Positions 16,735-49,677 of a stretch of 59,213 nucleotides of DNA are shown here, one piece after another. Position 1 is the stretch's first letter; each line of letters begins with the position of its first letter. Source of the DNA: Obrimoposthia wandeli (Eukaryota); the NCBI GenBank assembly GCA_977020255.1, contig CDROCS010004439.1, positions 1-59,213 of the forward strand, given 5' to 3'. The notes beneath the pieces were generated by a model. The model saw nothing but the letters and a program-made list of their open reading frames with translations, ran no database searches and was not told the origin of the DNA. A program made the position numbers and the translations under genes.

Positions 16735-16967
16735 CGAGTTCCACTTTTGAGAACAATATGGATATCTAAAAATGAAACTACAGATGGGGACGATGTCGGT
16801 ATGTGTATAGATCAATCAATGTATCTTCCAGTTGCTCTCCTTTCTATAAATAATATTGAAGTAAATATTAAAATGATTCCGGACAACTAATAGATTTCAC
16901 ATACGGGGCCAAGACAAGTTTAACAATACATTTAAGAAAACAAAATGGCGAATCCGGCAATAATTGA
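16735..16967 (+). pseudogene. Maverick penton (minor capsid) C-terminus, copy 1
   Basis: VPLLRTIW...QSMYLPVALLSINNIEVNI.NDSGQLIDFTYGAKTSLTIHLRK, with one frameshift. Confidence 0.75.
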
Positions 16968-17322: not shown

Positions 17323-17909
17323 GTTGCACCAAAACCGAATTGTGTATTTTTGATAAACCACTTCCACAAGTAGTTGTAGATAATGCTTCCTTTGAAGAAA
17401 TATTTCTAGTTAACTCAGTTTCAGGAACCACTTTAACCGATTTAGAATTTAATATTAATGGTTCCAATAGCGAGTATTTAGATTTGAATGATACTTTGCC
17501 TTATGTTCAAATAAAAGTATTAAATCGGGATGGTACTAATTTAGAGGAAAATGCCGATGTAACACCTGTAAATTATCTCTTTAATTCTTTATTTAGTGAT
17601 GCCATTGTTACTCTTAATAATGTCAAAATTGAAGGTGGAAATTCTTCCTATGCTCATAAAGCTTTGATTGAAGGTCTTTTGAATTATAGTACTGATACTC
17701 AAAATACTAATTTGGCAACAATTGGTTATGATAAAACGGCTGCAACTCGCAAAGAATGGATTGGAGGTTCTAAAGCTTACGAAATGTGTGGGTCTTTGAG
17801 ATTGAATTTATTTGAACAACCGAAATATTTAATTCCCGGTGTTAATGTACATCTTCGTTTGAAGCGTAAGAAATGGATTTTTTCTTTGATAAGCACAGAC
17901 GTTCTAAAA
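17319..17909 (+). pseudogene. Maverick hexon (double jelly-roll major capsid) N-terminal part, cut by hAT
   Basis: MSCTKTELCIF..LEFNINGSNSEYLDLNDT..VQIKV..NSLFSD..LIPGVNVHLRLKR matches the Polinton MCP pattern. The frame runs into the hAT TIR at 17910. Confidence 0.85.
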
Positions 17910-20173
17910 CAGTGGTTCTCAAACATTTTTTACTCGCGGCCCCTTTCAAAACGTTCAACCCACCCGCGGCTCCCTGCGAACAAACACTTATAAAACTTGT
18001 TGCGTAACATTATATTAAAAATACAGTAAGACTATTAATGAGAGGGATGGTGCTGCATTTTCGACGCGAGTTCACTGATATTGGGCTTGGTTGTTGATAA
18101 AACACATCGGAGATCGGATTCCACTAGTAATCGATTACGAGATTTCGTTTTCAAGGTTAAAAGGGAAGAAAATCCAGATTCGCATTCGTAAGTGGTGCTG
18201 AAGGGTAAAATTATGCGCAAGGCAATATCGCCAAGAATGGGATACTTTGCAGCCATTTTGATCCAGAAATGGTGAAGGGACAAATCATCGAATGGCAGTT
18301 TATTATATGACTCACTGACCATGTCTATGAACTGTTCTTGGGATTTAAGAGTGCAGTTTGGTACATCTTCTACCTCACAACCAAAAGGATTTTTAACAAA
18401 TTTGTGCAAATTTTCCGTGAACAAGTTTATAGGAAAATAATGATTGAAGTTATCGAAAAGTGATTGCATATGGATTCTCATGTTTTGTTTTGACATTTTC
18501 ATCCACAATGACATTCTTCTGTTTCAGAAATGATGCAGTTGTAGGAAACATGGCATAAGAATTTCGTGCAACCTCAGATGTTCATAACTTCAATTTGAGA
18601 CTGAATGCTTTTACCTTGTCTGAAGCGTCAATAATGGTCATTTGCTTGCCTTGTAACAAGAGATTTAGATCATTTATGTGGTTAAATATATCAACTAAAT
18701 AAGCCAGATATAATACCCATTTGTTGTCATCGGCTATTGCTGCCCATTCATATTTCTTTTTCTTTTCGAAAAACTCCGCAATCTCTTCCCTCAAACTGTA
18801 GACACGCTGTAAGACTTTTCCTCTGGACAACCACGGGACGTGTGAATAATATAATAATCCTTCGTAATCGCTTCCCATTTCAACACATAATTTTTGAAAA
18901 ATACGACTGTTTAATGCCAAATTTTTTATGTTGTTCACCATTTTAATGACATCATTCATCATTGATAACATCGGGGCCGGCATTGTCTTTGATGCTAGCA
19001 CTTGCCTGTGAAACATATAAAAATTAAATAAAATAGCACTTGCCTGTGAATCATACAATGGGTGTGAATAACATTCGGAGATATTTCCTTAACTTTCTGT
19101 TGAAATCCGGACTTTATACCAAACATGCTGGGAGCTCCATCTGTACATATTCCGCATAGATTTTCCCAATTAATGCCGATAACTTCGAAGAATACGTTGA
19201 CTTTGTTGAATATATCTTGTGCCGTAGTCGTAGACTCTAGTTCGCTGCAGAACAAGAACTCATCCTTGATTTCCGAATTACAAACATAACGAGCGTAAAC
19301 GAGTAGCTGTGCACAATCTGCAACATCAGTGGTCTCGTCTAACTGAATCGCAAACAATCCACATGTCGACATTTTGAGCTGGTCAATCACTTGTTCCTCA
19401 ATATTATTGGACATACTCTGAATACGGCGGTGGACAGTATAGTTGGATAGTGATAATATCTCAAGTTTCTTTGCACTGGCAGCACCAAGGATGGATGACA
19501 CAATATCAATACAGGCTGGGAGTAAGAGATTTTCGCCAATGTTGTGCGGCTTCTTAGCTTGGGCAATACGATATTACACTAAAAATGAAGCTTGTACAGC
19601 TGCTTCAGTTTGTTTCACAAAAGCCCCTGTCGAATCTAATCTAGCTTGTTTAGTAGAAACTTCTTTGCTTTTAAAAAAATCCACAGGCTTGTTTGCATAT
19701 GCAGGATGCTTTGATTTTAGATGGCGTATCATCTTGCTAGGCTTCAGTACTTCGGCTTATAAAACTTCTTGGCATAAAATGCATTGTGATTTTTCAACAT
19801 TCGACGATATAATCTTGGTAAATTCATATGCGATATATGTATCATCGTATTTACGCTTCTGAGATGCATTTGTTGATGGCATGATATTAAGATTTTGAAA
19901 ATTTAAAAATAGGAGTATTTAAACATTTTGTAAATTGAAATATTCAAACAATCAATTATATTAGTTTCTATTATAATACATAATGTTTTAACTACAATAT
20001 TTTATTTAAAAAAATAACTTAATACACAGTCAATAAAAAGATATTTATACTTTAATTATTAGATAGTACCTAAAATGAAGACCGTACTATATACCGGTAT
20101 ACAAATTTCTGCACTTTCGATATATAGCCCACCCCCACAAAATCCCCTACGGCCCCCAGTTTGAGAAACACTA
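17910..20173 (-). mobile_element. hAT DNA transposon, Buster/Charlie type
   Basis: TIRs CAGTGGTTCTCAAAC (17910) and GTTTGAGAAACACTA (ending 20173). The 8-bp flanks TTCTAAAA and TACTATAG both fit nnnTAnnn but are not identical. Confidence 0.92.
18035..19882 (-). pseudogene. Buster-type hAT transposase with BED zinc finger
   Basis: QCILCQEVL..KPSKMIRHLKSKH, then AIQLDETTD, CTDGAPSM, HCMIHRQ.LASK, and LPFSTTYECESGFS. It has in-frame stops, a 38-nt insertion and a break near 18550. Confidence 0.92.
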
Positions 20174-20175
20174 TA

Positions 20176-20339
20176 CTATAGACCAACCAATGTATATTCA
20201 AGTTGCTCTCTTTTCTATAAACTATATTGAAGTAAATATTAGAAATGATTCCGGACAACTAATACATTTCACGTACGGAGCCAAGACAAGTTTAACAATA
20301 CATTTAAGAAAACAAAATGGCGAATCCGGCAATATTTGA
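20176..20339 (+). pseudogene. Maverick penton C-terminus, copy 2
   Basis: IDQPMYIQVALFSINYIEVNIRNDSGQLIHFTYGAKTSLTIHLRKQNGESGNI*; duplicate of 16805-16967. Confidence 0.75.
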
Positions 20340-20694
20340 AGCTAATAGTCAAAGCCAACAAGGTGGAGAATTACCATATTTTGTTGGTAAACAATATGGA
20401 TCTGGCTGGCTTAGAACATTTGGTAGATTTGCCTTTCCTCGTTTAAAGAGACTCGGGTGATTTGTATCAAAATTAGTAAAGGACTACCTTTCATCTAAGG
20501 ACAATAAACTAATACCAACTTTTAAAAAGCATGCAATTAATGAACTTGATAATGTTTTACCTGACGGTGATAATTTGATTAGAAAGGGTAAATCAAATAA
20601 ACACCAAGCAGGTCGTGGATTTAAACGTAAAAGTAAGCAAAAAAATAATATAAACAAACGTAAGAAAGTTGAAGGAACAATATTTGCAAAATGA
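20317..20694 (+). pseudogene. Maverick core protein, copy 2
   Basis: Same 378-nt length as copy 1, with an internal TGA at 20458-20460. Confidence 0.75.
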
Positions 20695-21810
20695 GTTGCA
20701 CCAAAACCGAATTGTGTATTTTTGATAAACCACTTCCACAAGTAGTTGTAGATAATGCTTCCTTTGAAGAAATATTTCTAGTTAACTCAGTTTCAGGAAC
20801 CACTTTAACCGATTTAGAATTTAATATTAATGGTTCCTATAATGAGTATTTAGATTTAAATGATACTTTGCTTTATGTTCAAATAAAAGTATTAAATCGA
20901 GATGGTAGTAATTTAGAGGAAAATGCCGATGTAACACCTGTAAATTATCTCTTTAATTCTTTATCTAGTGATGCCATTGTTACTCTTAATAATGTCAAAA
21001 TTAAAAGTGGAATTATTCCTATGCTCATAAAGCTTTGATTGAATTATAGTACTGATACTCAAAATACTATTTTGGCAACCATTGGTTATGATAAAACGGC
21101 TGCAACTCGCTAAGAATGGATTGCAAAATCTAAAGCTTACGAAATGTGTGGGTCTATGAGATTAAATTTTTTTTAACAAATGAAATATTTAATTCCCGGT
21201 GTTAATGTACATCTTCGTTTGAAACGTAATAAATGGAATTTTTCTTTGATAAGCACAGACGTTCTAAAACCTAGATTTGATATTTTGGATGCAAAATTAT
21301 ATGTTCGAAGAGTTAAAACCGAGCAATCAGTTTTAATGGCACATAAAATAGGAATGGAAAAAAACAATACTTGTTATCCTATTAGAGAAACTAAACTTAT
21401 AACCTACTCTTTAGGTATGGTACACAAACTTTTAATAAGGATCAAATCTTTGGTCATGTAAAATTACCGAAATTCGTTTTAATTTCTTTTCAAAAAACTG
21501 CAAAGTTTCTAGGAAATTATACGACAGATGTAACTCAATTTGACAATCATAATGTAGGTTCAGTGAAACTTTCAAGAAATACTGATTATCGTGAAACATA
21601 TAAAACATATTTCGAAGGTAACGCTTATGCTTTGGCTTATACGCAATCTATTATTCGGAATTTGGGTCAACTAAATAAAAATATAAACAATGGTATTTCT
21701 TTCATTGAGTTCAAAAGCAGCTGTCCGTTCTTCACATTTGTTTTGGCACCAGACTTTGATATAAACCAATGCCAACTACCAAAGGATGGAAATTTACGAC
21801 TAGAAATCAT
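20691..21810 (+). pseudogene. Maverick hexon, copy 2, near full length
   Basis: ORFs 20691-21038, 21180-21461 and 21563 onward, ending FTFVLAPD..KDGNLRLEI. It has frameshifts, and the C-terminus is deleted into the protease gene. Confidence 0.88.
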
Positions 21811-22101
21811 GCAGAGAAGGTCCTGGGTGATAAATTCAAGGGAGTTTATCCTATTGATATGATTCCATTTTTTCAATCTGAAGGTTACATTATCAATACT
21901 CATACTTCGAATTTACCAGAAGAACATTGGATAGCAATTTATGTTAGAGAGTGGACAATAAATGTATTTGATCCACTTGCAATGTAATATCCACACAAAC
22001 TTGTTTCGACTATTCAAAAAGGACAAAGAAGAGTATTTTACAACAAGATACAATATGAAGATCCTGTGACGAGAAACTGTAGACATTTATGTATTTTATA
22101 G
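21808..22101 (+). pseudogene. Adenain-type cysteine protease
   Basis: FKGVYPID..IINTHTSNLPEEHWIAIY..VFDP*..QYEDPVTRNCRHLC gives the His/Asp/Cys order of adenain. There is one internal stop and the N-terminus is lost. Confidence 0.8.
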
Positions 22102-22368
22102 TAATCGTTGCAAATAATAATAATATAATAATAAATATTTTTAAAAACATGTTTTATTTTGATTTTTTTTTAAATTCCCAAAAAATATAAGGGTAAAATA
22201 ATAAAAGACATAAGATGATTTTTTTTAATACATATCACAACGAGATTTGTCAGCAAAGATAAGGCCCAACCTAAAAAAGTATTGATGTAACAAAAAGTTA
22301 GAGTCAAGGTGCCATTGGGATCTAAAATTTTAAAAAACTAAACAAAAAAGTCAAAAAATGAAAACCGT

Positions 22369-25300
22369 TTAAATTCGGAAGTGTCCATAAGCCAGGCTAG
22401 CGTTATTTTCTACCCAAAAGCGCTTGTCGTCATTACTACTCAAAGCGATTTTGGTTGATTTATGGGAATACAGTTGATGGGCTCTTGAAATAAATCTAGT
22501 TTGCTCAACGCTTTCAATACACCCAGTATCATAAACTTTCCGGTAGGCCTCATGTGTAAGATTGTTTCTTCCCACACCCTTTGCTCTCATTGAACATGTA
22601 TTATTAGATGCATGTAAACTGTAGCATTTAGGGCGTAGGAAAATACAATCATCATACGAAACCTGTCCCTCGCTTTCATCCTTAAATTTCCCGATAATGT
22701 CCTTTAAACTCATAGAGTGTAGAGGATGGTTAGCGGGATATTTACGGGTATCTAAAGTTGTCCTAAACATTGCTGGTAATAATTGATTATTTAAACTAAC
22801 ATTCCTACATTCTAAAAAGAAAGAGTCAGTGTCCCCAGCTGCGATTTTAATCTCACAATTAAATTCTTGTCGGTATTTCTCCAATTCTATGTATTGAAGC
22901 TCATACATTCTGAGTTTAGAAATGTCTAAAACCGTTTGACCTATATAACTCGGTTGATCGAGACAAATACTCTGTTTTCCTAATAACACTGCTACCAAGT
23001 CATCTGCAATTGTAAAACTACGATTGAAGTTGTACTTGCTAGTATATGTTATTAGTTTACGCTCATCATTGCAAAACCGTAGACAAATACGTTTCCGCAA
23101 GTCCTCTACAGTTTTTCCAAAGAGACTATTACTTTTTAACTTGTAAAAATCTCGATCGAATTTGCTAGTGGCCAAATTACGTTTTCTTGAATTCTTCTCA
23201 ATATAGTCTTTAAACACAAAGTTTTGACTGAAGCTTATAGCACGATGAATTCGAGTAACTTTCGCTCCCAACTTTAAGTAGAATTGAAGAAGCCGCCAAT
23301 GCACAACATAATTCAACTTGTCTTCATGGGTTAACAATAATTTCTTAACCTTTGAATTAGGTGGGCATTGATGAACAGGCGCTACTGGAAGATCATCTAA
23401 TTTATCATGCACATTGGGAGGGATTTTTATGTCCACCTCAACCAAATAGCCGACGTCGGATGAAACTGTATCAACAGTAGCCAAATCTGTCATCAACTTA
23501 TTCAACTGATCCACATCATAAACCCACTTAAAGTTGGCATGAGGTAGAAGTTGAGTGAGCGCCCACTTATACAAATTATTAATATCGATGTACAGAATCT
23601 TCGTGGATTGATTTTTGACAACATGATGTTTGTTGACAAAAGTAATTCCACCGCGTATACCATAATCATACATTTGATACATCGCGGGATCTTGCAGTAA
23701 CTCGATATTAATTTTAAGAGTTTTTATTGCTGTTGCCCATGAAAGACCAGGTAAACTAAAGAAATGCATGGGATCTAGCCCATCTTCTGCTAAAGACTTT
23801 ACACGAAAGGACTCAAAAACATCAGCTAAAAGATAAATGTCTAACTTCATATAATAAAGCATATATTCGAGAAGATTTTGACAATTATTCACCCAAAATG
23901 TACGGGCCTCATTATAGTCTTGAAGACTTACACCCTCAAATTCAGTTATGGGTGGGATTTCAGTTGTATTTTCTAAATCTGTGAAAGTTTTCGCAAATTT
24001 ATACGGAAAAATCCCCTTATCGTTAACCGAAGCTGGGAACACTGACTGTAATTGGCCATGCATTTAAAGATGCCGTTAAAGTTTTTAAAGACCCGCTCAA
24101 AAACTGTAGAGAATCTATGAATCTTAAACTGCAGAATTCAGTATATGCAGTTAAAGATAAATATTTATCTGAAGTTTGAGGTATACATGAAATTTCCCAA
24201 GAGCTTAATGTACCCAACGTATATTTAAGTATATGATGCAAATCATATCCCTTGAGATTATGAAAAACGATGGGAATGCGTGGTTTTTTAGGGAGACGAC
24301 GGCCAAGGTTACAAAGGTTGCACGCCGCTCCCAAGTATCGCCCCGTAACATGATCGTAATCTCTGACTAACTTAGACTGGGTTCCACACAAATAACATAA
24401 TCTACAAGAATTAAAATTAACCCAGTCTTTACCTGTCATGATCATTGCTTGATGAGCATTAAGATCATACCACGGTTTAACAATTGTTGTTCCTAATTCT
24501 TCTAATTTTAACATAAAATCTAAAATACAATTTGGACAGGGAAATGTATGATACTGTGTAATATTGGGGTCTAAGAATAGTAGTCCTGCCGAAGCCGGTA
24601 GGTGAATACTCTCATACTGGTCGTGCAATGCTAAAATTGACTCAAAATCTGCATACACCCTGAATTCCACGGGTATGCATTTTGCCCAATCCCTGAATTT
24701 TAAATCCTTATCCTTAGGCGTGCTATATAGCGTATTGTCATCAGGATTTGGTGAACATAATGTCAGATGTTTAATGTAAGAGAGCTCGGATTGGAATCCA
24801 TGCAAACATCTATGACACCACTTACACCTTATACTAACCGGTAAGGCTCCATTATCTAAATTTAGAAGACGATCTAAATTTGGAATTGCAGCATAATGGA
24901 ATTTTTTGTTATGTCGAGCAAAATTAAGTTTACCTGAGTCCTCTCATTTTTGCTTCTATAAATTACATCTACAAAAGGATTTAAAAAAATTTATTCATCT
25001 GTTAAATTAACTGGGATATCAGTATTATATTTGAATACATTAATACTCAAGTTATTAAGGTGCTAAAATCTTGATATCGCAGTTAATTTAAATGGAAAAT
25101 CTATTCCATGATAATGCAATTCATTTAAAAAAGGGGTATATTTACTGACACGCTCTCTATGCTCAGTAATTATATCCCTTTTGAGGATGACCAACACGCT
25201 ATACAGAAAGCAAAGGTTATCACTGTTTTGTATGTTAACAATGGAACGTGAAAGTTGAAGAGATCTAGGTGAAGGAATGTATGAACTCCCCAAAAGATAT

Positions 25301-25960
25301 ATCATGTCAGTGAACTTTGTTAGAACAAAGCTAACATCGTGAATTCTAACTAGAGTCCATGCACTACTTAACTCGCTATAATTAGCAATTTTTTCATCTA
25401 GGTTTCTTCCAATTTTAGTTACAAAATTATCATAGAAAACAGTTGCTTTATGTGAAATTACCCAAGTTTTAGTCTCTTCATTGACATTTTAAAACTGCAC
25501 TGTTGCGCAAAATTGAACCTTAGCCTGTCCTAATTTAGTCATTTCTGATTTTAAAAGACTTTCAATATTTGAATCTACACCTACGTTTAATAAAATTTCA
25601 TTTCCTAATGGCACCTTAACTATAACATATTTATTATTTATGTGATACTCTATAGTAGCACCGTATTTTCTACGTTTTTTGGGTGGGACCTTATTAAGAA
25701 ATTGGCCTCGCCTCTTTCTTCCCACAGTTGCGGACAAACCTCCCTCTAATTGAACGGAAAGATAACTATTTATATTAACAGTTGAGGCAATCGCATCTGA
25801 GGTGGAAGGTGCTGCTATTGGTGTTGCTGCCGATGTTGAGGCATTCGCAGCTGATGTAGACGATGCTGCTGTAGTAAATGCTACCGCAGATGATGATACA
25901 GTAGATGCTGCATTTGAAGTTGGAGTAGATGAGTATATAAATATTTTAATTTTTTTTTAT
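22369..25960 (-). pseudogene. polB: Protein-primed family B DNA polymerase (pPolB) with EndoVII-like insertion
   Basis: GSSYIP..IVNIQNSDNLCF, VYADFES, DYDHVTGRYLGAACNLCN, FHNLKGYD, RFIDSLQF, GIRGG, YIDINNLY, KLKSNSLFGK, AGDTDS, GKFKDE, LRPKCY. Several frameshifts and stops; the longest intact part is 22369-24063. Confidence 0.95.
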
Positions 25961-26310
25961 TTCGTCAATTAAAAGGATTATTTGTAATTGGATGAAAATT
26001 TTGTAAATTATGAATTTCTCCAATTAGAAGAATTGTTTATCTACATGTCAAGTAATAATAAGATAGACTTAAACATTTTTTATATGCGCAATGGTCACCA
26101 TGATCACGATATGGACAGCAAATATTTCGTGGAATTTTTAATAGATGATCACGTGAAATATTTAAAGTATTCAATCTCAAATTTGGAAAATATTTTTTTA
26201 AAGACTTATACTTTTTGCCATCCATTTCATCTAAAACATAAAAAATTCCATTTTCAATATCAAAATTAGATTTTATTGTATTGAAAATACATATTTCACA
26301 AAAAGCCTTA

Positions 26311-26727
26311 TGTAGTGAATTCATGTTTTGTAGTTACTTAATTACCTAAAGTAATTGGTTGCATAATTATTCAATAAAATTGTATAATTACGCAACAAAC
26401 AAACTGTTTTATTTTATTTCGTTTTTAATTAATTTTGAAAACAAAATGGAGTAAAAGGGTTTGTTTTAATTTTTATATTTATTTTAATTTATTAATTTTG
26501 AATTACATGATGAATCTCTCAAATACAACATGGTCAGCTGCAACAACGACTTCTCAAGCTAATCCGGCAGCATGGTCTATTTCTGCCAATGAACTATATT
26601 ACAATTATTACCAAACTATATCTCCAGCAGTTACCACTATTTCAACTACTACTCAAACTCAAACTCAAACTGTGGAATTTAATCAAGACATAATATCATA
26701 TATAATTAAATATATGCTTACACTACA
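26311..26727 (+). repeat. 5' LTR (417 bp)
   Basis: TG...CA with a 7-bp terminal inverted repeat, followed by PBS-like TTGATGTCAGAAG. It has about 82 extra bp relative to the 3' LTR. Confidence 0.95.
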
Positions 26728-26750
26728 TTGATGTCAGAAGAAAAAAAAGC

Positions 26751-28104
26751 ATGTTCACATGTAAGTTTATTTTTGATTTTTTAAAACTATCATTTATCAT
26801 AGATAATTTCAAATCATTTAAAAATAAAATTAAAAATAACTTTTCGGTAGATGTATTTACATCACCAAACATAGATAATTTCAAATCATTTAAAAATAAA
26901 ATTAAAAATAACTTTTCGGTAGATGTATTTACATCATCAAACATACTTTGTGAAAGTAATGATAAGGTTAGGTCACCGGACACTGTTAGTACGTCCTCAG
27001 AATTTTTCTTTAAACATGAGGATTTTGGTAACATCACCACCAAATTTTCGTCACTTACCCGTATTGATGCAGTAGTTAGGTTCTTTCTGCCCACTTATGG
27101 TGCCGTTTGGTTGTCAGTAGATCCTAAACCACTACGATCATCATTAACACTTGGTGACTATAGAACTGGTTTGGTAACTGAAGTTATCATTCATCAAAAA
27201 CTTATAGGAGGTGATGATACTAATGCCTTGTCACTTGGTGACACCGCCTTAAGTTTTTTTCTAGATTCAAACGGTTCTCTTTCGTGTTGGTTTTCAATAC
27301 TAGAATCTCGATTTACGGCGCTGAACGTCACAAATCAGATGTCGAAAGTACATCGCACTTTACCCTTACTCACCGTTTAAAGTACTACAGAGTATTTCTA
27401 TGTCTTTGTCAGACGTTTTTGAAAATAAGGAACCTTTTACTGAACTGAAACGACTTATAGAATTTAAATATAAACCCTCATTTGATTCAGTATTTATTAA
27501 ATATTTCGGTTCACAATCACTTGGTGCAAAATCTCCTTCTGCATTCCTTAACACTGCAATCTCTGATTTAGAAACGCTACATCCCGGCATAACCAAAGAA
27601 AACAATAATAATTTGTGGCGCAAATTGTTCATTCAAGCACTGCCAAAAATGGCACAAGCAATTCTTGCTGGTAATGAGATGGTAGGTGATATCAAAATTC
27701 TTGCAAACTTGGCAGATCGCATCGTCACGAATTTAGAGCCTACGAAACCAGTATTTGCAATAAAGAGTGACATCGCAGAACCACAAGCATTAGATACTCT
27801 TACCAGTGTTATTTCGGCATTAGCAGATAAGGTATCACGTTTGGAAACTGAAATGACATCACATCGTTCACGATCTCCGCAACGTTCACGTAGCGCTTCT
27901 AGAGATCCTACTTTATGTTATTTCCATTATAAGTTTGGAAATGATGCTAGGAAATGTAACTTAGGCTGTGGTTGGAGACATAAGTCAGATAAACTTTTCA
28001 TTTTAGACACGTGCATCTATCACGCAAAATATAGAATTGACGCTAAGAAATGTTATCCAGGTTGTAAGTTCCAAACAGATAATTCTATTTCCTCAAAAAA
28101 CTAG
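26751..28104 (+). pseudogene. gag: Gypsy gag with two CHCC zinc fingers
   Basis: WFSILESRF..; a frameshift near 27352 joins to ORF 27400-28104 (LGAKSPSAFL; CYFHYKFGNDARKCNLGC and CIYHAKYRIDAKKCYPGC). A 72-bp tandem duplication lies at 26798-26941. Confidence 0.85.
28095..28101 (+). other. -1 ribosomal frameshift slippery site A AAA AAC
   Basis: Canonical X XXY YYZ heptamer in gag phase directly before the gag stop. The protease ORF is in the -1 frame. Confidence 0.8.
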
Positions 28105-31052
28105 TATCACCTTCGGTTACGACCGCAAACTCGCAAGGTGACTTATCATGCGGCATTTTTACTTCCCATGCTACTTTAACAGACTCCAATATCAATAGCT
28201 TAGAATTTCTCATTGATACAGGTTCAGCCATTTCGGCACTACCTATGTCCTTATATCCTACATTCCGCATGACCGACAGAATATTAGTTGCTGCAAATGG
28301 TACCACCGTTCATACTTATGGAACTACTACACTTCAATTTAGTCTTCAAGATATATCCACATCATTTAGTTGGACATTTACCATTGCCAACGTAACTCGT
28401 CCAATTTTAGGATCCGACTTTTTCTCTCATTATCGTCTACTAGTCGACTGTCATAACCAATGCGTACTCCACCCGACAGCACATGCAATTCCTCTGCCGA
28501 ACATCGAAATCAATATGCTTAACAAATTAACTGTCCAAAATTCTACTGCTTACATTACGGAACATTTTCCTAGACTTATTCATCGAACTACAGACATACA
28601 AAGCTCTGTTGAATCTTAACATCACATTATTACCTCACAATGCGCACCTGTTGGCCAACGTCGACGTGAATTGTCCCAAGAAAGAAGACTGCTATGTGAA
28701 GAGCAATTCTTACAACTTGAAAAAGATGAGATCATCAGACGTTCATCTTCTCCATGGGCTTCTCCACTACAAATTGTCCACAATAAAGATGGTACTTTGC
28801 GCATATGTGGCGATTATCGTGGTGTAAACAAAGTCACTATCCCTGATTCATATCCAATGCCTCTAATCAGCGATATCATTCAACGCTTTAACAAATGCAC
28901 AGTATTTTCGTCCATTGATTTAGTGAAAGCATATCATCAAATTCCGATGGAAAGTTCGTCGATAGAGAAAACAGCTGTCACCACTCCATTTGGACTATTC
29001 GAATATCTTCGAATGCCATTTGGACTTCGCAACGCGTCCCAAACGTTTCAACGGCATATAGATAGGGTCCTGCAAAATTTACCATATACAACGGCATATA
29101 TTGATGATATCATCATTGCATCGCCTAACGCTGAGGTACATAAAGTTCACCTTGAAGCAACACTCTCGCGACTAAATGAGCACAATCTACAGATTAAAAT
29201 GGCTAAATGTAACTTTTTTGCTTCACATGTAGAATTTTTAGGATACAATATTTCATCCCATGGTATTCAACCATTACCAAGTCGACTTTCTGCAATAAGA
29301 AACTTCCCTAAACCATCTACTACTACTGAACTACGCAGCTTCTTGGGAATGATCAATTTCTGCCGTAGATTTTTACCAAATCTATCTGGCAAACTTGCAA
29401 CCTTAACTACACTTTCCACTGGCAAGAAGCGTGCAAATATACAGTGGCCTGATAATGCTAACAACGCATTTTTACAAATAAAGGAAGAGTTAGTTGAAGT
29501 TACAACACTTAAATTCCCAGACAAGGATCTTACACTTACCACCGACGCTTCTAATGTCGCTATAATGATGCTTGCACAAATCAAACAAGACATTTCTGAA
29601 CCTCTTGAATTCTTTTCTCGTAAACTTTCGGTTGCACAAACCAGGTATTCCGCATTCGATCGAGAATAGTTAGGAATATACCTTTCTGTAAAGCATTTCG
29701 AACATCTTATTATTGGAAGGCATGTGATAATCTACACTGATCATAAACCTTTGATACATGCACTCACAAAAAAAAACTCCCAAACAACAGCGCCACATCA
29801 GCTACTTATCAGAGTTTGACATTGACATACGTCACATTTCTGGTGCAGAAAACATAGTGGCTGACTGTTTTTCACGGATTGAAATCGACTCAATTGATTT
29901 CGAGCCAATGTTATCACAAGATGTACTTGTGGAAAACCCTCCATCATCTGGAGACATATAATTATTTCAGACACCGCCTACCTTGAGAAATGGTATCTAC
30001 TATGACTATACTCTCAGCGGTTGTACTAGACTGGTGATAGGATTAAAATTACGCATTGATGTTTTTAAGGCAATCCATGCAATAACTCATGCAGGATTTC
30101 GTGCTACCTATGAACAAATCAAAACCAGAGTAGTTTGGCTCTTTATGCGAAAAGATATAAAGAATTGGTGCAAATCTTGTTTAGCATGTCAAGCCAATAA
30201 AGTCGTGAAACATACTAAACCACCAATTTTACAATTTCCAACAGGCAGCAGATTTGATACAGTACATATCGACATTGTAGGACCACTACCACCATCGAGA
30301 GGGTACACTTATTTACTAACTATGATTGATTGAAAAACTCGTTGGCCCGAAGCGTTTCCAATTCGTACAATATCAGCGCAAACTGTTGCTGACATCTTCA
30401 TAGCAAATTGGGTTGCCAGATTTGGTGTCCCGAAACGTGTTATTACAGATCAAGGCACCCAGTTTGAATCGGCGCTTTTCACATCACTAATAAAGCGTAT
30501 AGGGTCACAAAAAATTCGCACAACAGCATTTCATCCACAATCCAATGGTCTTATAGAACGATTCCACATAACGTTAAAGAATTCATTTAGATCACTTTCT
30601 GTTAACCACTATTGGATTCTTGCACTACCTTATGTGTTATTAGGATGGCGCAACATTATCAGCAGCAGACATGGCGCTTCTCCTGTTCAAATGCTATTTG
30701 GGTGTAACACCAATCTAATTGATGAAATATTTTTTGGCAACAACCCGTTAGATGATGTTCATGCGCAACGTGTCAGGGAACATTTTAAAACGCTGGACAC
30801 TACACCTACTACAAAATCTAGTCTGAATATATATGTACCAAAAGAGCTAAAAAACGCTAAGTATGTTTGGTTACAACGGGAATCTCCTACTTCCTTGCAG
30901 GCCAGATATTCTGGTCCTTTTCTTCTTTTACATAGCAATTTCGACAATAACACAGCAGTAATACTTGTAAACGATAAACAACGTACCGTAAACGTTTGTA
31001 AAATTAAACCTGCCTCGCATATAGATGACGACACGTGCTGTGGAGCCCTATA
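28101..31052 (+). pseudogene. pol: Gypsy pol (PR-RT-RNaseH-INT)
   Basis: FLIDTGSA; SPWASPL..ICGDYR; YIDDIII; TTDAS; TDHKPL; HAITH..CKSC; HIDIVGPLP; ITDQGTQFES. In-frame stops at about 28617, 29667 and 30331, and a frameshift near 29770. Confidence 0.95.
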
Positions 31053-31267
31053 AATTAATAAACATGTAACCTTTTCACCTTGGTGTACAATTTTCGGTGA
31101 ACAAACCTTACTAAAAACTTTCATTTAACATGCTTAATTTTAACTTTCATAATCTTTCATTAAATTAAATACTAAGTATAATTATATGTATATTTGATAG
31201 TGTTAAGAGATTGAGAATAGCTTCTTTTTAAATATTCCTTTTCGCTCCGCTACTTAGGTGGGGGCTA

Positions 31268-31602
31268 TGTAGTGAATTCATGTTTTGTAGTTACTTAATT
31301 AGCTTAAGTAATTGGTTGCATAATTATTCAATAAAATTATATAATTACGCAACAAACAAACCGTTTTATTTTATTTCGTTTTTAATTAATCTTTCAAATC
31401 CAACATGGTCAGCTGCAACAACGACTTCTCAAGCTAATCCGGCAGCATGGTCTATTTCTGCCAATGAACTATATTACAATTATTACCAAACTATATCTCC
31501 AGCAGTTACCACTATTTCAACTACTACTCAAACTCAAACTCAAACTGTGGAATTTAATCAAGACATAATATCACATATAATTAAATATATGCTTACACTA
31601 CA
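31268..31602 (+). repeat. 3' LTR (335 bp) preceded by polypurine tract AGGTGGGGG
   Basis: Matches the 5' LTR apart from one indel and a few substitutions. Confidence 0.95.
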
Positions 31603-31844
31603 CCTTATGTCCTTCTTTCCATTTTAATAAATGAAAGAAATTAGTTAGATATAAATTAATACATTTTTTCTTATAATCTAAACTTTTAAACGGGATATCT
31701 ATTTGAAATATGAAATGCAAAGGATGAAAAACGTCGTATACATCCATAATACATAATTCTTTTTTAATATAATCACCATTTTTGTTAACGAAAGCCTCAA
31801 AATAGTTAATCAAAAATTTATTAAAATAACAAAGTACTCAGGAT

Positions 31845-32065
31845 TCATTTTTTCATGTTAAGATTGGTATATATTGTCAATTCTCCTATGAATATTAAAA
31901 AAATTATATTAAATGTAAACATACCTAAATATTTCGAAATTAAATTACATATTTTATCTCCAACAATTTCCGGAGTATCATTTTCTGAGAAGAAATTTTT
32001 TTATAATCTTTTTTATAATCTGTAGATAATTTAATGTATAATTTATTCCAATTTTTATTTTCCAT
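31845..32065 (-). pseudogene. Small Maverick ORF with a 39-nt GT-AG intron (31924-31886)
   Basis: MENKNWNKLY..PEIVGDKICNLISKYLG|ELTIYTNLNMKK*. Its stop overlaps the ATG of the next gene (ATGA), and it has one frameshift. Confidence 0.45.
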
Positions 32066-32529
32066 GTTAAAAAAACATTATATATAAAATTGTTTATATT
32101 TAGACAATTATGTAACATAAAATTAATCAATGAAGGACAAAACAATAATATTCAAAAAATTAATTTTTTTGTGGAAAGATCCTCTTCAGGTTTAATCTGG
32201 GGGATTCTCTTTCTTTCAGCTAGCCGATTGTCCTCCATCTCCTCTATTTTTTTTCATCCAGTTTCTTTTTTTTCCAATTCTATCTTTTTGTTCCACTCCA
32301 CGATCCGACGTCCTTCTGCTAGCCGCCTGTACTGAAATGGGAACAAAGTTGCCTATGTGCAAAATTGAACGTGCTCATATTTCTATGTTTTAAACATTTC
32401 ACGTAATAAATTGTAATCAGTTTTACTATGTTTATTTCATTTGGCAATTAATAATCAGTTTTATTTTTTTTAATATTTGTATCTTATATGTATTTTTTTA
32501 TAAACTTTGTTTTTAATCAGTTTCCTTAT

Positions 32530-32942
32530 TTTAGAATATATTCTCTTCTGAGATGTGTAGGAAAATTTTATTATCCAGAAAGAATTTCAAAAGGAAAACT
32601 ATGTAATATATTAAAGAGGCATCAAATTATACGAGTTATGAATACTGTGAAAATATCAAAAGTGGAGAATAAATATCTCATCGAAATTTTAACAACATCT
32701 GATATTGATCAATTGAAAAATATTTTGGGATTTTACATTTCTGATTATGTATATGAAGGAAATTGTTTCCAGCTTGAAACTGATCCCAGTCTGGCTTTTA
32801 GAGATGATCTAGGATTGATTGCTCAATTCTAGATGAAGAACTATGGAATATCTCAATACGTCTCAATGGATATTTTGCTGATGACGGGAAAATGAAGCCT
32901 CTTTGGACTTTGAGTGAAGCCAATATGATGTTTAATGTTTAA
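32530..32942 (+). pseudogene. Maverick SSB-like gene B
   Basis: Homologous to 46150-46556. After a frameshift near 32815 it continues ..EELWNISIRLNGYFADDGKMKPLWTLSEA. Confidence 0.55.
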
Positions 32943-33244
32943 TAAATGTTTTGAAAAATAATTTTGACTCGTATTTTGTTTTTATCCTCTAAATTATATA
33001 GATCTATTTTTTCTCTTATAAATCTGACCTAAATATTTAACAAGTAGTAATCTAAAATCTTTCTTAAAAATAGTAGTAATATATTCACATTTGAAATCTC
33101 ATCTGCGAAAAGCCGCCGGGGCCAATATGGATTCCCGTGGTCTTTTCTAACCACATTGGTATCAAAAATGAGTTAAATATAGATATTTTTGCGTCCGGAG
33201 AACGAGAATAGAGCCCGACCCAAAGGGGCGGGCGGCGGGCGTTG

Positions 33245-33562
33245 TGATTCGGTGGGTGATTCAGTGGGTGTTTCGGTGGGGTGTTTCGGGGTGGTATGAT
33301 TCGGTGGATGGTGTGGTGATTCGGTGGGTGGTGTGTTTCGGTGGATGATTTGGTGAATGATTCGGTGGGTGTAGATGGTTCGGTGGGTGTGGATGATTCG
33401 GTGGATGTGGATGGTTCGGTGAGTGTGGATGATTCGGTGAGTGATTCGGTGGATGATTCGGTGGGTGATTCGGTGGGTGTGGATGATTCGGTAGGTGATT
33501 CAGTGGTGTGATTCGGTGGGTGGTATGGTGATTCGGTGGGTGCGGATGGTTCGGTGGGTGGT
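33245..33562. repeat. G-rich tandem array of GATTCGGTGGGT-like 12/18-bp units
   Basis: Directly visible. The array is flanked by GC-rich hairpins at 33213-33233 and 33663-33683. Confidence 0.9.
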
Positions 33563-33789
33563 TTTTTTGGGGGTATGTGTAGATGGTTAAAGTAAAAAAT
33601 ACTATAGCGCCCGAAGGGGATTTATGTTATAGTTATTATCACACCCGGAAAACTAGAATAAAGCCCGCCCCGAAGGGGAGGGCGGTGGGGGAGTGACGCG
33701 CCTCGACAGGGGCGATTTATTTTTTTAGGGGGGTTATTCCCCACCCCCTCCTATTCGTTGCTTTTTGAAATTTTCAAATTTTTTTTTTT

Positions 33790-33949
33790 TGCGTAAACAC
33801 ATGCACGAAATTTCACTCCACAAACATACACGAAATTTCACTCCACACACATGCACGAAATTTCACTCTACACACATGCACGATTTTAAAGGACAGTGGT
33901 AGCCCCCCCACGGGGAGGGGGTGGATTAGACCAGACACATCCACCTACT
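33790..33949. repeat. Maverick right terminal inverted repeat with about 24-bp direct repeats
   Basis: Its reverse complement matches 43983-44089 nearly base for base. ACACATGCACGAAATTTCACTC occurs about 3.5 times. Confidence 0.9.
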
Positions 33950-34518: not shown

Positions 34519-36354
34519 TCATATTTTTGGTTGTTTTCTTCTGTGTTTAAATAAATTGAATACAGTTTTGCCTTTCTTTTGACCTGCATTTTTTGTTTGG
34601 GGATTAGTTATAAGCTCGTCAGCACTTTTACGAGGTTTAAAAAATTGATTATTTTTATTGACAATATACGAACAACTCTTTTCAACAGTAATGGGTGGAA
34701 GCAACGGTGGCGTATTTACTGTGTTTGTCGAATCAACTGGTGCCGCAATGTCATATATATCCTCGTCTTTTTGAGCTTCTGTACATCCCTGTTCATCAAT
34801 AGAATTTTCTGTCATCAAGTGGACGTTGTCTTGTTTCGTGGTATTACAATTTCTTGAATCAAATACCTTTGGTGCTTCTTTTCTAGCATAAATATTTTCA
34901 TAGCTCTTTATAATTGTTTCCGAGGATTCAAGTCCAATGTAGACTCCAAAATTTATCGCGTTAGGAACATCTGGTACTATTTTTGTAGTAGGGCTTTTAG
35001 AAAGATTTTCATTGCTCTTTACAATTGTTTCTGAGGATTCAGGTCCATCGTAGACTCCAAAATTTATCGAGTTAGGAACATCTGGTACTATTTTTGTAGT
35101 AGGGCTTTTAGAAAGATTTTCATTGCTCTTTACAATTGTTTCTGAGGATTCAGGTCCATCGTAGACTCCGAAATTTATCGAGTTAGGAACATCTGGTACT
35201 ATTTTTGTAGTAGGGCTTTTAGAAAGATTTTCATTGCTCTTTACAATTGTTTCTGAGGATTCAGGTCCATCGTAGACTCCAAAATTTATCGAGTTAGGAA
35301 CATCTGGTACTATTTTTGTAGTAGGGCTTTTAGAAAGATTTTCATTGCTCTTTACAATTGTTTCTGAGGATTCAGGTCCATCGTAGACTCCGAAATTAAT
35401 CGAGTTAGGAACATCTGGTGATTTTGTTTTGAAGTGTGACTGTTCAGCTGATTCTGTTTTATCCTGAGATTTATTTGGATTTATATTATGATCGCAGCCA
35501 AATTTTAGGGAATTTGACACATTTGAATCATGATTTTTAGATTCTTGCAATTCGATAGAATCTGTTTCAGTAGATTTTTTGATTGCTGTCGTATTGGCCG
35601 GTTTTTGAAGTAAGCCTAACTTAGTTTTAGAATCAGTCTTCCCACGCTGTGATTTAGGTATTACTGCTTGATATATGTCATCATCTTCCTCTTCTTTCTT
35701 GTTTTGCATAGATTTGGGTACCCCAGTTTCGCATTCATGTCCATCGTCCGATTCTTCTTTCTTTTCCTCTTCATCTGAGGTAAGCTTAACACTTATATCG
35801 CTGATTTCTAAATCTTTGGTGGAACATTTATGATGGTGTTTGATGTCTGGTTTTGATGACTTACTTTGCTGTGGTGGGGGAGGAGGAGGCCTGTCTTTAA
35901 CATTGCAATATAATTTATTTTCTGACAAGGAATCTTTTTTCAAGATTTGTGAATACTCCCGATTATCATAGTCACTATTAGATTCAAGATTATCACTGTT
36001 GAACGGATTTGCTTTTTTTTTCGATGCATCAATTTCTGGCATAGGACGCCTCTGTAGTTCCTGGTCATCAATGTTGGTCAAAGAAGAAATTTGGAAATTT
36101 GATAGAGGTTCATTTAGAATGTTTACTTTCTTTCCAACGTCATTATGAGGTTTTGCTGCATTGTTGTTTTGTGAATTTTGATTATCATTAGAAAATACGT
36201 TAGAGATTATTTGTTGTACTCCAGGTGAACTGGGTTTTTGTTTTGTCTGCGGTTTGTTTATATCTCTTTGTTTCGTTGAAGGTTTCGGAGGATAGGTGGG
36301 ACGACTGGGTGGACTTTTGGTTTCTGAAATAAATGAAGTATGACATATTTTCAT
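34519..36354 (-). CDS. Probable host low-complexity protein or large exon with Pro-rich motifs and Tyr-motif tandem repeats
   Basis: Uninterrupted 611-codon ORF in a region where nearly everything else is decayed. No recognisable globular domain. Confidence 0.7.
   Translation of the reverse strand: MKICHTSFISETKSPPSRPTYPPKPSTKQRDINKPQTKQKPSSPGVQQIISNVFSNDNQNSQNNNAAKPHNDVGKKVNILNEPLSNFQISSLTNIDDQELQRRPMPEIDASKKKANPFNSDNLESNSDYDNREYSQILKKDSLSENKLYCNVKDRPPPPPPQQSKSSKPDIKHHHKCSTKDLEISDISVKLTSDEEEKKEESDDGHECETGVPKSMQNKKEEEDDDIYQAVIPKSQRGKTDSKTKLGLLQKPANTTAIKKSTETDSIELQESKNHDSNVSNSLKFGCDHNINPNKSQDKTESAEQSHFKTKSPDVPNSINFGVYDGPESSETIVKSNENLSKSPTTKIVPDVPNSINFGVYDGPESSETIVKSNENLSKSPTTKIVPDVPNSINFGVYDGPESSETIVKSNENLSKSPTTKIVPDVPNSINFGVYDGPESSETIVKSNENLSKSPTTKIVPDVPNAINFGVYIGLESSETIIKSYENIYARKEAPKVFDSRNCNTTKQDNVHLMTENSIDEQGCTEAQKDEDIYDIAAPVDSTNTVNTPPLLPPITVEKSCSYIVNKNNQFFKPRKSADELITNPQTKNAGQKKGKTVFNLFKHRRKQPKI
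34890..35418 (-). repeat. Coding tandem repeat, 111 bp / 37 aa, 4 full copies plus 1 partial
   Basis: PDVPNSINFGVYDGPESSETIVKSNENLSKSPTTKIV repeated almost identically. Confidence 0.95.
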
Positions 36355-43982: not shown

Positions 43983-44414
43983 AGTAGGTGGATATGTCCG
44001 GTCTAATCCACCCCCTCCCCTGGGGGGCTACCAATGTCCTTTAAAACCGTGCATGTGTGTGGAGTGAAATTTCGTGCAAATATATACATGTCCTGAGACG
44101 TGTATACACGTTTCAACTGTACAAGTGCAGTTCACTGGTGGTATATGATACGGTAGTCAAGGTGGGGAAATTAAATTGGAAAAATAAGCGCATGGTATAC
44201 TTGAATTCCGCCAAGAGCAAATTCAAGCAAGTTCCTGCGATTCCTGGCTTACTATTTACCTTCTGAAATTCACCAATTTGTCCGCACATGTCCCATACCA
44301 CTGCCAATAAATCCCTATATATGACTTTATAAATTATATAAAGTAACGTATACGTGTTTTTTTTCTCCTATCTATCCTACAACCCTCAACACCCAAAAAG
44401 ACTAATTACCCCAT

Positions 44415-44723
44415 TTAATACCCTTTAAAATTGAAAATCTCATAGTGCTCCCACAGAGTGAGGAATATTGAAATGTATAATGTCAGAGCTGTTGTAGATG
44501 AAATACAAAAAATAATTAATATATATTTGGTTATAATTTTATTTATTTGTGTTTGATTTCTAAATTCTCAAATAACGTTTAATCTAACCAATATTTCAAT
44601 GTTATCTCTTGTTATATCATTAATTTTTTATTCTGATAAAATTTGTTTACCCCTAATTTTTCCAGAAAATATTTCAACGACAAGCCGATTTACTTCATTG
44701 TCTGTATTTATAGTATTATTCAT
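44415..44723 (-). pseudogene. Small ORF with C-terminal hydrophobic segment
   Basis: 103 codons in one frame with two internal stops, including YILIIFCISSTTALTLYISIFLTLW. Confidence 0.35.
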
Positions 44724-44789
44724 TTGATATAATAGGTTTAAACGGTTTTGTTTATAGAAGAAAGATAACAAGATATAATAAAATATATT

Positions 44790-45254
44790 TTATAAAATCG
44801 AATCAATAATGTCTGGATAATAAATTTTTTTCAATCCTAATATCATAACTTTGCCACTGGGATATATATTTACACATAGTGGTTTAAACTTCAAATAACT
44901 GAGTGCAGGAAAAATTTCTGGTTCAAGCATGCATTCTTCTTTCATTTTCTCTGCAATTTTATAAAGATTTATTGGGTTTCCGAGATTAGCTGAAATTGTG
45001 ATTGATTGTTTTGCAGTGATTCGAATTCCAAATGGTAAATTGAACTCATTCAATGTTTTTTTGCATCCCATAACACGACAACTTCCTAAAAGAATTCAAT
45101 ATGAAAATAAAATAAAAAACTAACCTGAGGGAAAAATAACAACTGTAAAATAGTTAAACCTTTTCACATATTGTCTCAGCTTTCATTCATTGAATAGTAA
45201 GTACGAAATATCATCTGCTATTCTGATTTTATAATTTATATTTACGAGTTTCAT
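44790..45254 (-). pseudogene. TATA-binding-protein-like gene: 2 exons (45254-45125, 45085-44790), 39-nt intron, one internal stop
   Basis: Spliced product MKLVNINYK..TVVIFPSG|SCRVMGCK..ANLGNPINL..LEPEIFPALSY..PLCVNIYPSGKVMILGLK reproduces both TBP repeats (LIFSSGKMVCTGAK; YEPELFPGLIY..LIFVSGKVVLTGAK). Confidence 0.85.
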
Positions 45255-45531: not shown

Positions 45532-45981
45532 ATGATGGACGATAGCCAACAGATATTAAGCTGTGATGAAGATTTAGAAATGTTTGAAGAATCGGATAAG
45601 GATATGTATGAAGAAGTGAAACAATATTTCAAATATAAAGTCAGATTCATGAAGAAGCCTCAACTGATTGCTTTAGTAAATCCTGTGACAATTGAAAGAA
45701 GAAAGTTCAGCTATTATCTATCAAATATTCAATAACCAGATTTTCAATATCTTAAACAGAAAGTTAAAAAGGCAGTTCCACATTTTACTTTCTATAAGAA
45801 CGAATTTTATATCCGAGGAGCCGATGCAGCATTTCTAGATGACTATGGAAGAGAAATAGATGTTGATGCGTTTCCGAAACAAAAGCAATGGACTGTAACA
45901 ATTCGACTTCATGGTTACAAGAAAGATGAAATTGGAACAAAGTTACCTATGTGGAAAATTGAACGTGCTCATATATTTTAA
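45532..45981 (+). pseudogene. Maverick SSB-like gene A (149 aa, one internal stop)
   Basis: A single frame reads through TAA 45733-45735 to ..AAFLDDYG..WTVTIRLHGY..KLPMWKIERAHIF*. It is paralogous to gene B; the SSB function is inferred. Confidence 0.55.
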
Positions 45982-46149
45982 CTACTTATTTTTCTTTCAT
46001 TTTGCATTTAATAAATTATAATCGGTTTTATTCATTTTTACTATGTTTCTTTCATTTGGCAATTAATAATCAGTTTTATTTTCATAATATTTGTATTTTA
46101 TATGTATTTTTTTATAAACATTGTTTTTAATCAGTTTCCTTATTTTAGA

Positions 46150-46556
46150 ATGGATCCTCTTCTGAGATATGTAGGACATTTTTATTATCCAGAAAGAATT
46201 TCAAAAGGAAAACTATGTAATATATTACATAGGCATCAAATTATACGAGTTATGAATCCTGTGAAAATATCAAAAGTGGAGAATAAATATCTCATCGAAA
46301 TTTTAACAACATCTGATAATGATCAATTGAAAAATATTTTGGGATTTTACATTCCTGATTATGTATATGAAGGAAATTGTTTCCAGCTTGAAACTGATCC
46401 CAGTCTGGCTTTTAGAGATGATCTAGGATTGATTGCTCAATTTTAGATGAAGAACTATGGAATATTTCAATAAGTCTCAAAGGATATTTTGCCGTTGACG
46501 GGAAAATGCAGCCTCTTTTGACTTTGAGTGAAGCCAATATGGTGTTTTATGTTTGA
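46150..46556 (+). pseudogene. Maverick SSB-like gene B
   Basis: MDPLLRY..QIIRVMNPVKI..LAFRDDLG (frameshift) ..LWNISISLKGY..GKMQPL. Confidence 0.55.
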
Positions 46557-48355: not shown

Positions 48356-49677
48356 AGGCGGGGTATGTGTAGATGGATAAAGTTAATGAAAAATACTGTA
48401 GCACCCGGAGGGGCGCGTTGGGGCGACCGCACCCCCGCCTCCCAAAGGGGAGGGGAGCAGACGGGTCGAACATTTTTGGGCGGAAGGACCTTAGGAGATA
48501 TTTTGTTGACCTCTTTGTTGATATTTTTCAAAATTTCACTACACACACATGCATGAAATTTCACTCCACACACATGCACGATTTTAAAGGACAGTTGTAG
48601 CCCCCCGAATGGACAGGGTATTAGACCGGACATATCCACCTTCTACAAAAATTAACAAAACTGACGTATACATATCCACGAATTTATAGCTGCTGTATCA
48701 AAAAATTACATCAAACTGTTATAGGCTGTGAATAGGCTTGAAGATGGTAGGTTACTTATGAATAATTTAATTTTATATATCATTCCTTTTGTTTTTATTT
48801 TTCACACGAGATGGAATTGAAGATGGTAGGTTACTTATGAATAACCCGGTACAAGACAATGCATTTCCTCTAACTTCAAATTTACCGAGTATTTTTTATG
48901 AAAATAACGAAATTTAATTCGTACAAATTAACCTCCTTCTTTAGACAGATATTATAGAAAATATTTCGACTATAGTTCATAAAATTTTAGGAAAGGTTTT
49001 TGACAACATTGAAAGAATTAAAAATGAATTTCTGAAAATTTATCTGAAAACGATAAAAAAAACTTTATTCATCATTGCCTTGTCGAAGAATAGTATATTA
49101 CGCGAAGACAATAAGATATTAACTCTGTGATTTTACTTTATGTTTCACTAAAAAATTCTGTTCATATTTGTGTGACATGAATAAATGTTGTAGTGGTCTG
49201 TTTTACTTGTCACTTTGAAAATATATAAATAGTATTAAGCATTGTATATTTACGAAATTAATAGTTCGTTATCGACAGATTAATATTATAAAAAGACAGC
49301 TTAAAATAACTTTGGATTTGTGACTCTTACCAGTTTATTCATTTACAGACAACAAAAAATTATAAATAAAAAATAATATACAACATTGTGGACGAATACC
49401 ATAGTGAATTAGCATTTTTGACGTTCACTAGAAAACATGACCTATTGTTATATAATTTAAAAAATACTAACATTTAAGAAACAGTGCAGTTATCAAGAAA
49501 TAATTAACCATCCGTGATATCATCACATTTAGTTTATAAAGTTTAATATTGTTAAGAATATAAAAGAGTATTTGTTAAAATTGGTTAAAACCATAAAAAA
49601 TATACCTTTGACAAACAGATACTCAAAATTTAAAATAAATTAACATTACTTAATATTAACCTATACACATACACAAC

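Follow-up and report, generated by a model that had tools for sequence, protein, structure and literature searches.

A TBP-like gene of a Maverick lineage in Obrimoposthia wandeli and a candidate promoter word before its capsid and packaging genes

How integrated Mavericks (Polintons) switch on their capsid and packaging genes, and whether they pass through a real viral late phase or none, is an open question. It is raised by a homolog of the TATA-binding protein (TBP) encoded on the minus strand of the window, by which we mean the whole stretch analysed here, 59,213 nucleotides of contig CDROCS010004439.1 of Obrimoposthia wandeli. Read from the ATG at 45254, the gene matches Pfam PF00352 (E 1.4e-11; 44.5 bits against a cut-off of 22.9), the match being confined to the second repeat, and all 35 of the 35 solved-structure matches of its protein are TBPs, so the first-pass annotation named the gene correctly. 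It had also rebuilt an open frame of 141 amino acids by removal of an intron, and this part did not stand. Because of an in-frame stop at codon 24, no GT-AG intron at the claimed place restores the frame from 45254 to 44790, and the end at codon 142 is premature, since nine of 30 copies first stop at codon 154 and thus encode 153 amino acids. A strict open-frame test is passed by eight of the 30. In other copies the stop codon falls within the TATAAAC word at 44756-44750. As to the start, homologs open with the same M-x-x-N-I-N-Y motif; a start 22 codons further upstream was discarded, being an ATG in only eight of 30 copies while homologs begin at the position of 45254. The TBP-like gene of the window is a pseudogene, and the copy that carries it is dead, a fossil.

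That the gene lies inside Maverick termini, as had been claimed, is confirmed by inverted ends at 43983 and 48644, which match at 87.6% over 97 nt and enclose an element of 4.66 kb (Table 1). Longer copies continue past 44466 with genes for a packaging ATPase, an integrase, minor and major capsid proteins, a protease, a protein-primed polymerase (pPolB) and RING-like and DEDD-type proteins, the DEDD and RING labels being partly assigned by eye. In the window element the ATPase, integrase, capsid, protease and polymerase genes are gone by a deletion at about 44465/44466; since longer copies carry the core genes past this point, the copy in the window is a non-autonomous Maverick with an internal deletion. 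An ATPase match lies within 1.5 kb in 24 of 30 copies, and about 1.5 kb ahead of the repeat at 48550-48644 matches few or no other fetched copies. No 6-bp target duplication was found in the flanks of the window element; five of six flanking bases are duplicated around a TBP-bearing copy of 11.7 kb, and all six around a 185-bp mini-element with the same ends. The protein of the divergent neighbour, modelled from another copy, matches T7 gp2.5 with a middling Z of 7.7 (rmsd 3.3 over 110 residues). The short open reading frame beyond it gave no Pfam match, and a TATAAAC word stands 37-39 nt before its start in 13 of 16 copies.

A first look at the 1.35-Gb genome gave 5,813 candidate copies, 40 of which were scored and the 30 best-matching fetched; these are 89-99% identical. 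Variation among them is almost flat across the codon positions (0.033, 0.035 and 0.044), and own-genome copies have a pairwise dN of 0.057 and dS of 0.109. Near-equal change at the three positions fits decay after insertion, and we propose that the thousands of chromosomal copies, the one in the window included, are mostly decaying insertions.

Other parts of the window hold related and unrelated material. Positions 16731-33949 contain a larger, rearranged segment from the same family of Mavericks, with partly duplicated capsid genes, a protease, pPolB, a DEDD-type gene and a terminal repeat; a hAT fragment (about 18035-19573) and a Gypsy element (26309-31602) break it up. The polymerase of this segment (24023-24943), like that at L058:9125-12391, has a weak Endonuclease VII/HNH match, a feature described for pPolB2-class Polintons (PMC10748475). 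At 34519-36354 lies a minus-strand reading frame of 611 amino acids built on 111-nt tandem repeats, with no Pfam match; 14073-14474 weakly matches a viral fusion glycoprotein, and 53400-58900 matches an LTR retroelement with integrase and an envelope-like reading frame in L149-L150.

Table 1. Coordinates in the window of the element and of the TBP-like gene with its surroundings
Feature	Position	Strand	Remarks
Terminal inverted repeat, begins AGTAGG	43983..44078	+	
Deletion junction	44465..44466	.	Longer copies continue here with packaging ATPase, capsid, protease, integrase and pPolB genes
TATAAAC word, 3' end of TBP-like gene, facing next gene	44750..44756	-	Present in 25/30 copies
Exon 2, TBP-like gene	44752..45085	-	Codes for the last part of repeat 1 and the whole of repeat 2; stops prematurely at codon 142 (44792-44790)
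Intron, TBP-like gene	45086..45124	-	39-nt GT..AG, phase 1, within Gly codon after F116 equivalent
Exon 1, TBP-like gene	45125..45254	-	130 nt from ATG 45254; in-frame stop at codon 24 (45185-45183)
Canonical TATA box TATATAAA	45285..45292	-	38 nt upstream of TBP-like ATG; read from sequence
OB-fold single-stranded-DNA-binding-protein-like (SSB-like) gene, divergent neighbour	45532..45981	+	Broken by one stop
TATAAAC word (46113-46119) and short unknown ORF from 46150	46113..46446	+	ORF 37 nt on from word
Opposite terminal inverted repeat	48550..48644	-	Last bases decayed

Although the window copy is dead, the gene belongs to a family. A profile search with a cut at E <=1e-5 found 747 proteins, and its best 120 matches are all short members of the family. 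With clustering at 50% identity, 62 clusters scored E <=1e-30, and the family alignment holds 137 homologs with a median length of 151 amino acids. Copies within Mavericks, which the first-pass annotation led one to expect, occur both as the longer own-genome copies and in metagenomic loci; a core Polinton gene is present in 22 of these 54 loci, and in 14 of 20 when only those of at least 3 kb are counted. Long runs of core genes stand in L058, L068, L074 and L089, and pPolB, integrase, ATPase, protease and major and minor capsid genes are present across L058, L068, L074, L046 and L047, the pPolB and capsid labels being based on weak Pfam matches and chains of homology; one of the 54 loci, L104, matches weakly and probably falls outside the family. 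Like Polintons or Mavericks (adintoviruses) at large, the elements have AG-starting inverted termini, pPolB, integrase, an A32-like ATPase, an adenain-like protease and two capsid genes. Related metagenomic Polintons also carry cargo, such as a ubiquitin-conjugating enzyme (L074:225-719) and a leucine-rich-repeat protein (L078:1918-3327), the latter of a family that mostly stands behind TATAAAC (3/4). Of the 40 pairs for which dN/dS could be computed, 39 stay below 0.5, most of them at 0.1-0.25 (about 0.2), the pairs not being independent; the family is evidently under purifying selection across unrelated Polintons.

It is conceivable that such a gene is a recent passenger, a pseudogene of a host TBP or TRF. 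The window copy is broken, the variation among copies is flat across codon positions, and the host, which has canonical TBP genes of its own, has several TBP paralogs. However, in a tree of 38 family members (30 drawn at random from the 137, plus 8) and 10 cellular TBPs, three of them host genes, a branch of 2.6 substitutions per site with support of 100/100 separates the family from the cellular proteins; left out of this tree were two host paralog loci with only partial exons and archaeal and giant-virus TBPs. The family moreover recurs in unrelated Polintons under purifying selection, and the host TBP has no intron at the site of its intron. The tree, the recurrence and the selection refute a host pseudogene, to which we give practically no probability, and the earlier statement that this is not the host TBP holds. 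The TBP-like gene is a standing part of a conserved Polinton lineage, far from the host TBPs. The host itself (L105-L113, L156-L163, genome G000) has about five TBP-family genes and several BRF-like paralogs; two of the TBP-family genes lie head-to-head on C238, two are divergent and intronless, and one is without an F99 equivalent.

The intron proposed by the first-pass annotation fared better than the open frame. Its retention (45124-45086) brings an in-frame TAG at once and then a second in-frame stop, and exactly these 13 codons are missing from all 21 homologs of the first search. Among the 30 copies, AG is kept in 30 and GT in 25; the length of the segment is altered in six, never by a multiple of three, against length changes in only three and four copies in the far longer exons. 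In L089, a metagenomic element at about 51% protein identity, a GT..AG intron of 40 nt with an unrelated sequence occupies this site in the same phase, and unrelated introns interrupt the same site in four further own-genome subfamilies that are 50-55% identical in exon 2 (15/20 copies, 23-35 nt; 14/14, 33-39 nt; 1/4 and 3/4, 39 nt), so that lengths across these other carriers run from 23 to 40 nt. Given the 13-codon gap of the homologs and the five other unrelated introns that share the site, the 39-nt segment is well supported as an intron, independently of RNA. Among the joints listed for four runs, which were contigs of one sample, none falls at the intron, a result that speaks neither for nor against splicing. 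The site is continuous, without an intron, in 50 of the 54 metagenomic loci (three do not span it) and in two single-copy own-genome subfamilies, a third one not being classifiable. About 15 representatives begin at a Met just past the site, which fits hidden introns and equally any gene cut at its 5' end. The host TBP has no intron here; an intron of a host TBP is 47 nt long. One TBP-bearing subfamily (L164-L183, genome G000) has a TAT/TAC microsatellite as its intron, with lengths of 23-35 nt, of which 23 nt is very short for an animal; other small genes of the elements (SSB-like, c9) have apparent short GT-AG introns near their 5' ends. The common site indicates that these elements rely on host splicing, unlike the intact vertebrate Maverick elements, whose genes are intronless (Barreat 2021, PMC8097293); introns are already in print for dinoflagellate polinton-like elements (PMC11957031).

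What kind of TBP the family encodes can be approached through a model of a second natural copy, with X placed at the intron stops. The model (pLDDT 92.6) matches yeast TBP (7o4i_O) with a Z of 12.9 and an rmsd of 2.7 over 150 residues, and its top five VIA matches are all TBPs (Z 11.0-12.9, model range 1-165). Like cellular TBPs (PF00352; yeast 7o4i_O, human 1cdw, Sulfolobus 1mp9), the protein forms a two-repeat saddle; unlike them, it has about 150 rather than about 180 amino acids and is without the helices of repeat 1. Repeat 2 is complete in the model, repeat 1 keeps its strands and has no helix of four or more residues (residues 1-96), and the alignment of 137 homologs has gaps where H1 and H2 of repeat 1 would stand. 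Shared with cellular TBPs across the 137 are the equivalents of F116, F190 and F207 (99-100%), P191 (91%) and N69 (98%), and the acidic C-terminal stirrup on the TFIIB side (E 97%, P 100%, E 100%). Lost is F99, which has no conserved aromatic counterpart among the 137, in an alignment whose register at strand 1 and at the F99 loop was set by eye, MAFFT having shifted strand 1. A K-R-F in repeat 1 was considered as its equivalent and dropped after alignment. The protein thus appears to fall outside the four-phenylalanine definition of a canonical cellular TBP, one intercalating Phe being lost. Further departures from cellular TBPs are Asn for V71, Arg for V122, Met for T124, Ser for N159, Arg for I194 and Asn for L205, each in 98-100% of homologs (Ser for N159 in 99%), and Thr for V161 in 88% of 137, where for I194 and E186 we assume the numbering. 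This pattern is repeated in 64 full-span distant representatives and is weaker below 120 bits. Such invariant yet altered DNA-facing residues suggest a changed and selected specificity. The phenylalanine positions and the TFIIB surface singled out by the first-pass annotation are retained only in part: three of the phenylalanines and the acidic stirrup are there, F99 is not. Yeast residue numbering is otherwise as in Table 1 of PMC12529657.

For a motif, the first-pass annotation had pointed to the stretches upstream of the capsid genes. In a scan of the 110 nt before called start codons, with near-duplicates removed, TATAAAC stands in 37 of 52 virion and packaging upstream regions, against 17 of 104 others and 123 of 2,866 background windows (4%), the Fisher p of 2e-11 for this enrichment being an overstatement because the upstream regions of one element are not independent. 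It precedes the ATPase in 10 of 12 cases (at 32-48 nt), MCP in six of seven, c11 in six of six, c4 in six of nine, the minor capsid gene in four of seven, the integrase in three of seven and the protease in two of four, and so there is indeed a motif upstream of capsid genes. In three loci the word is strand-biased (9 to 0, 8 to 0 and 9 to 0). The 15 virion or packaging regions that lack it include several with CATAAAC or mis-called start codons, and TATAAAC is likewise found before genes that we class as non-virion (DEDD-type exonuclease-like, 5/8; three unknowns, 3/5, 5/5 and 3/4). Before the TBP-like and SSB-like genes of the metagenomic set it is found in one of 40 and none of 18 regions, and canonical TATAWAWR in 18 of 40 TBP-like regions. 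The own genome gives the same picture, with TATAAAC before the ATPase in 10 of 12, MCP in two of two, the TBP-like gene in none of 19 and the SSB-like gene in none of 15, and with canonical TATA in 16 of 19 TBP-like and 11 of 15 SSB-like regions; in other own-genome subfamilies the word precedes the ATPase in 16 of 17. In the window it stands at 17277 and 20649, each 42 nt ahead of a capsid ATG. Early-type genes also have, past the TATA box, a word TCA(C/T)T that resembles an initiator.

TATAAA is a known variant of the poly(A) signal, and the word could accordingly serve the gene upstream of it and have nothing to do with the TBP-like gene. It does overlap or follow several stop codons, among them the one of the TBP-like gene. 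Yet in the case of c11, MCP and the protease it is embedded in the coding sequence of the preceding gene, about 40-107 nt deep and ahead of the stop, and it keeps a tight spacing to the ATG downstream (32-48 nt for the ATPase) despite differing upstream neighbours. Because the word is so often inside coding sequence, a polyadenylation-type signal is very unlikely.

A different possibility is that TATAAAC is simply a weak TATA box for the host TBP and that the TBP-like protein does another job, for instance binding early promoters or the terminal repeats and thereby repressing early genes or assisting replication alongside the SSB-like protein. TATAAA, which makes up the first six bases, is canonical, the protein has lost one intercalating Phe, and its gene often adjoins the SSB-like gene, homologs of which are present in 19 of the 54 metagenomic loci. 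However, early-type genes of the same elements use TATAWAWR and avoid TATAAAC, and the TFIIB stirrup is near invariant. The word is also absent, at 0 of 51 upstream regions of 10 genes, from another Polinton family that shares the genome but is unrelated, and in which the TBP profile found no match in eight of eight 20-kb stretches; this co-occurrence of gene and word compares one lineage with one control family in one genome, and some control copies may not be complete. As IMG/VR scans with TBP and capsid alignments and a prokaryote scan gave no relative, the comparison has a single TBP-less family to draw on. That family (L115-L148, G000) has a PF21738-type capsid and several conserved unknown genes. 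We consider it unlikely that the word is read by the host TBP alone while the TBP-like protein serves elsewhere.

A more appealing scenario is that the compact TBP-fold protein, of about 150 amino acids, is a late-promoter factor that recognises TATAAAC and brings host TFIIB and Pol II to it, and on the residue pattern and the placement of the word we regard this as probable. An element that has its own TBP gene and a fixed word before its capsid and packaging genes likely uses this protein as its own switch to start virion production. The TBP-like and SSB-like genes would be early genes, read by the host TBP from canonical TATA boxes, and the host spliceosome would remove the intron. The C-terminal repeat, with the F190, P191 and F207 equivalents intact, would read the 5' TATA half, and the rebuilt N-terminal repeat, without F99 and with invariant Asn, Arg and Met on its DNA face, would accept the C at position 7. 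A C at this position is excluded by the cellular TATA consensus YWTAWADN, and the Phe pairs of TBP insert at steps 1-2 and 7-8 of the TATA box (PMC1935006). P191 sets the first T of TATA (PMC12529657), from which we infer that repeat 2 sits at the 5' end and that the unusual C7 faces the rebuilt repeat 1. The retained E-P-E stirrup would bind host TFIIB, and the product would recruit it together with Pol II to the virion, packaging and integrase genes as a late-gene switch. TFIIA, TAF1, Mot1 and Brf1 contact TBP on surfaces of the repeat-1 helices, and the loss of these helices would free the protein from such contacts.

The same features, a retained stirrup and a missing TFIIA/TAF side, are the pattern of a dominant-negative TBP, and the first-pass annotation had left the choice between a promoter factor and a decoy. 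A decoy would sequester host TFIIB or block host TATA boxes and so shut down host or defence transcription. But a pure sink needs no invariant, newly polar DNA face, and the positioned TATAAAC word would be left unexplained. Because of this word and of the invariant, remodelled DNA face, we favour a late-gene factor at the level of the family, the window copy itself being dead, and hold a decoy to be quite improbable.

Viral TBP mimics that serve late genes through host Pol II are known from beta- and gammaherpesviruses (KSHV ORF24, EBV BcRF1, HCMV UL87; PMC12529657, PMC12197705). KSHV ORF24 has polar residues at V122, V161 and L205, reads TATTWAA and is described as lacking the TFIIB-binding acids (PMC12529657). 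The Polinton protein resembles these mimics in the polar DNA face at the same three positions and in a TATA-like late word. The herpesvirus proteins are large and multidomain, act in a six-protein complex, have four Phe, lack the acids and read TATT, whereas the Polinton protein is a single small domain that keeps the acids and is paired with TATAAAC. The KSHV viral TBP needs all four phenylalanines (PMC12529657), of which the Polinton protein is without one, and the Giardia TBP, without three, prefers single-stranded DNA (PMC12209930). EBV BcRF1 is among the weak fold matches of our model, whose top viral matches are annotated giant-virus TBPs at 10-20% identity; a chain of the vaccinia intermediate pre-initiation complex reaches a Z of 5.5. 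No common ancestry is shown by the likeness of herpesvirus and Polinton TBPs. Giant viruses and poxviruses mostly bring their own RNA polymerase; unlike them, these TBP-bearing Polintons have neither an RNA polymerase nor a TFIIB-like gene that we could see.

TBP is not named, by term searches, in the main texts of PMC10748475, PMC11161782 and PMC8097293. A literature search for a Polinton TBP or promoter word, over texts without their supplements, found only the bare label 'TBP' in the Fig. 5 legend of Starrett 2021 (PMC8502044), for MELD viruses of non-animal datasets, which may or may not be this family; the supplements of Starrett 2021 and Jeong 2023 could list the gene. The Polinton TBP variant, with its matching candidate promoter, is real and conserved and apparently undescribed.

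A lineage-wide TBP variant and a positioned, non-canonical word make the question of a Maverick late phase testable with one small protein and a 7-base site. They also offer a natural experiment on TBP itself, parallel to herpesvirus ORF24, on which of its surfaces are dispensable and how a polar DNA face shifts specificity. It is possible, though we hold it at slightly less than even chances, that a whole clade of Polintons runs two-stage transcription from a single gene of 150 residues, in which a half-rebuilt, minimal TBP with its own TATAAAC promoter would use host TFIIB and Pol II and no other viral factor. No known viral system of late transcription would then be smaller; it would have evolved independently of that of the herpesviruses and would take the element from silent integration to virion production, with the host-spliced micro-intron as a possible gate.
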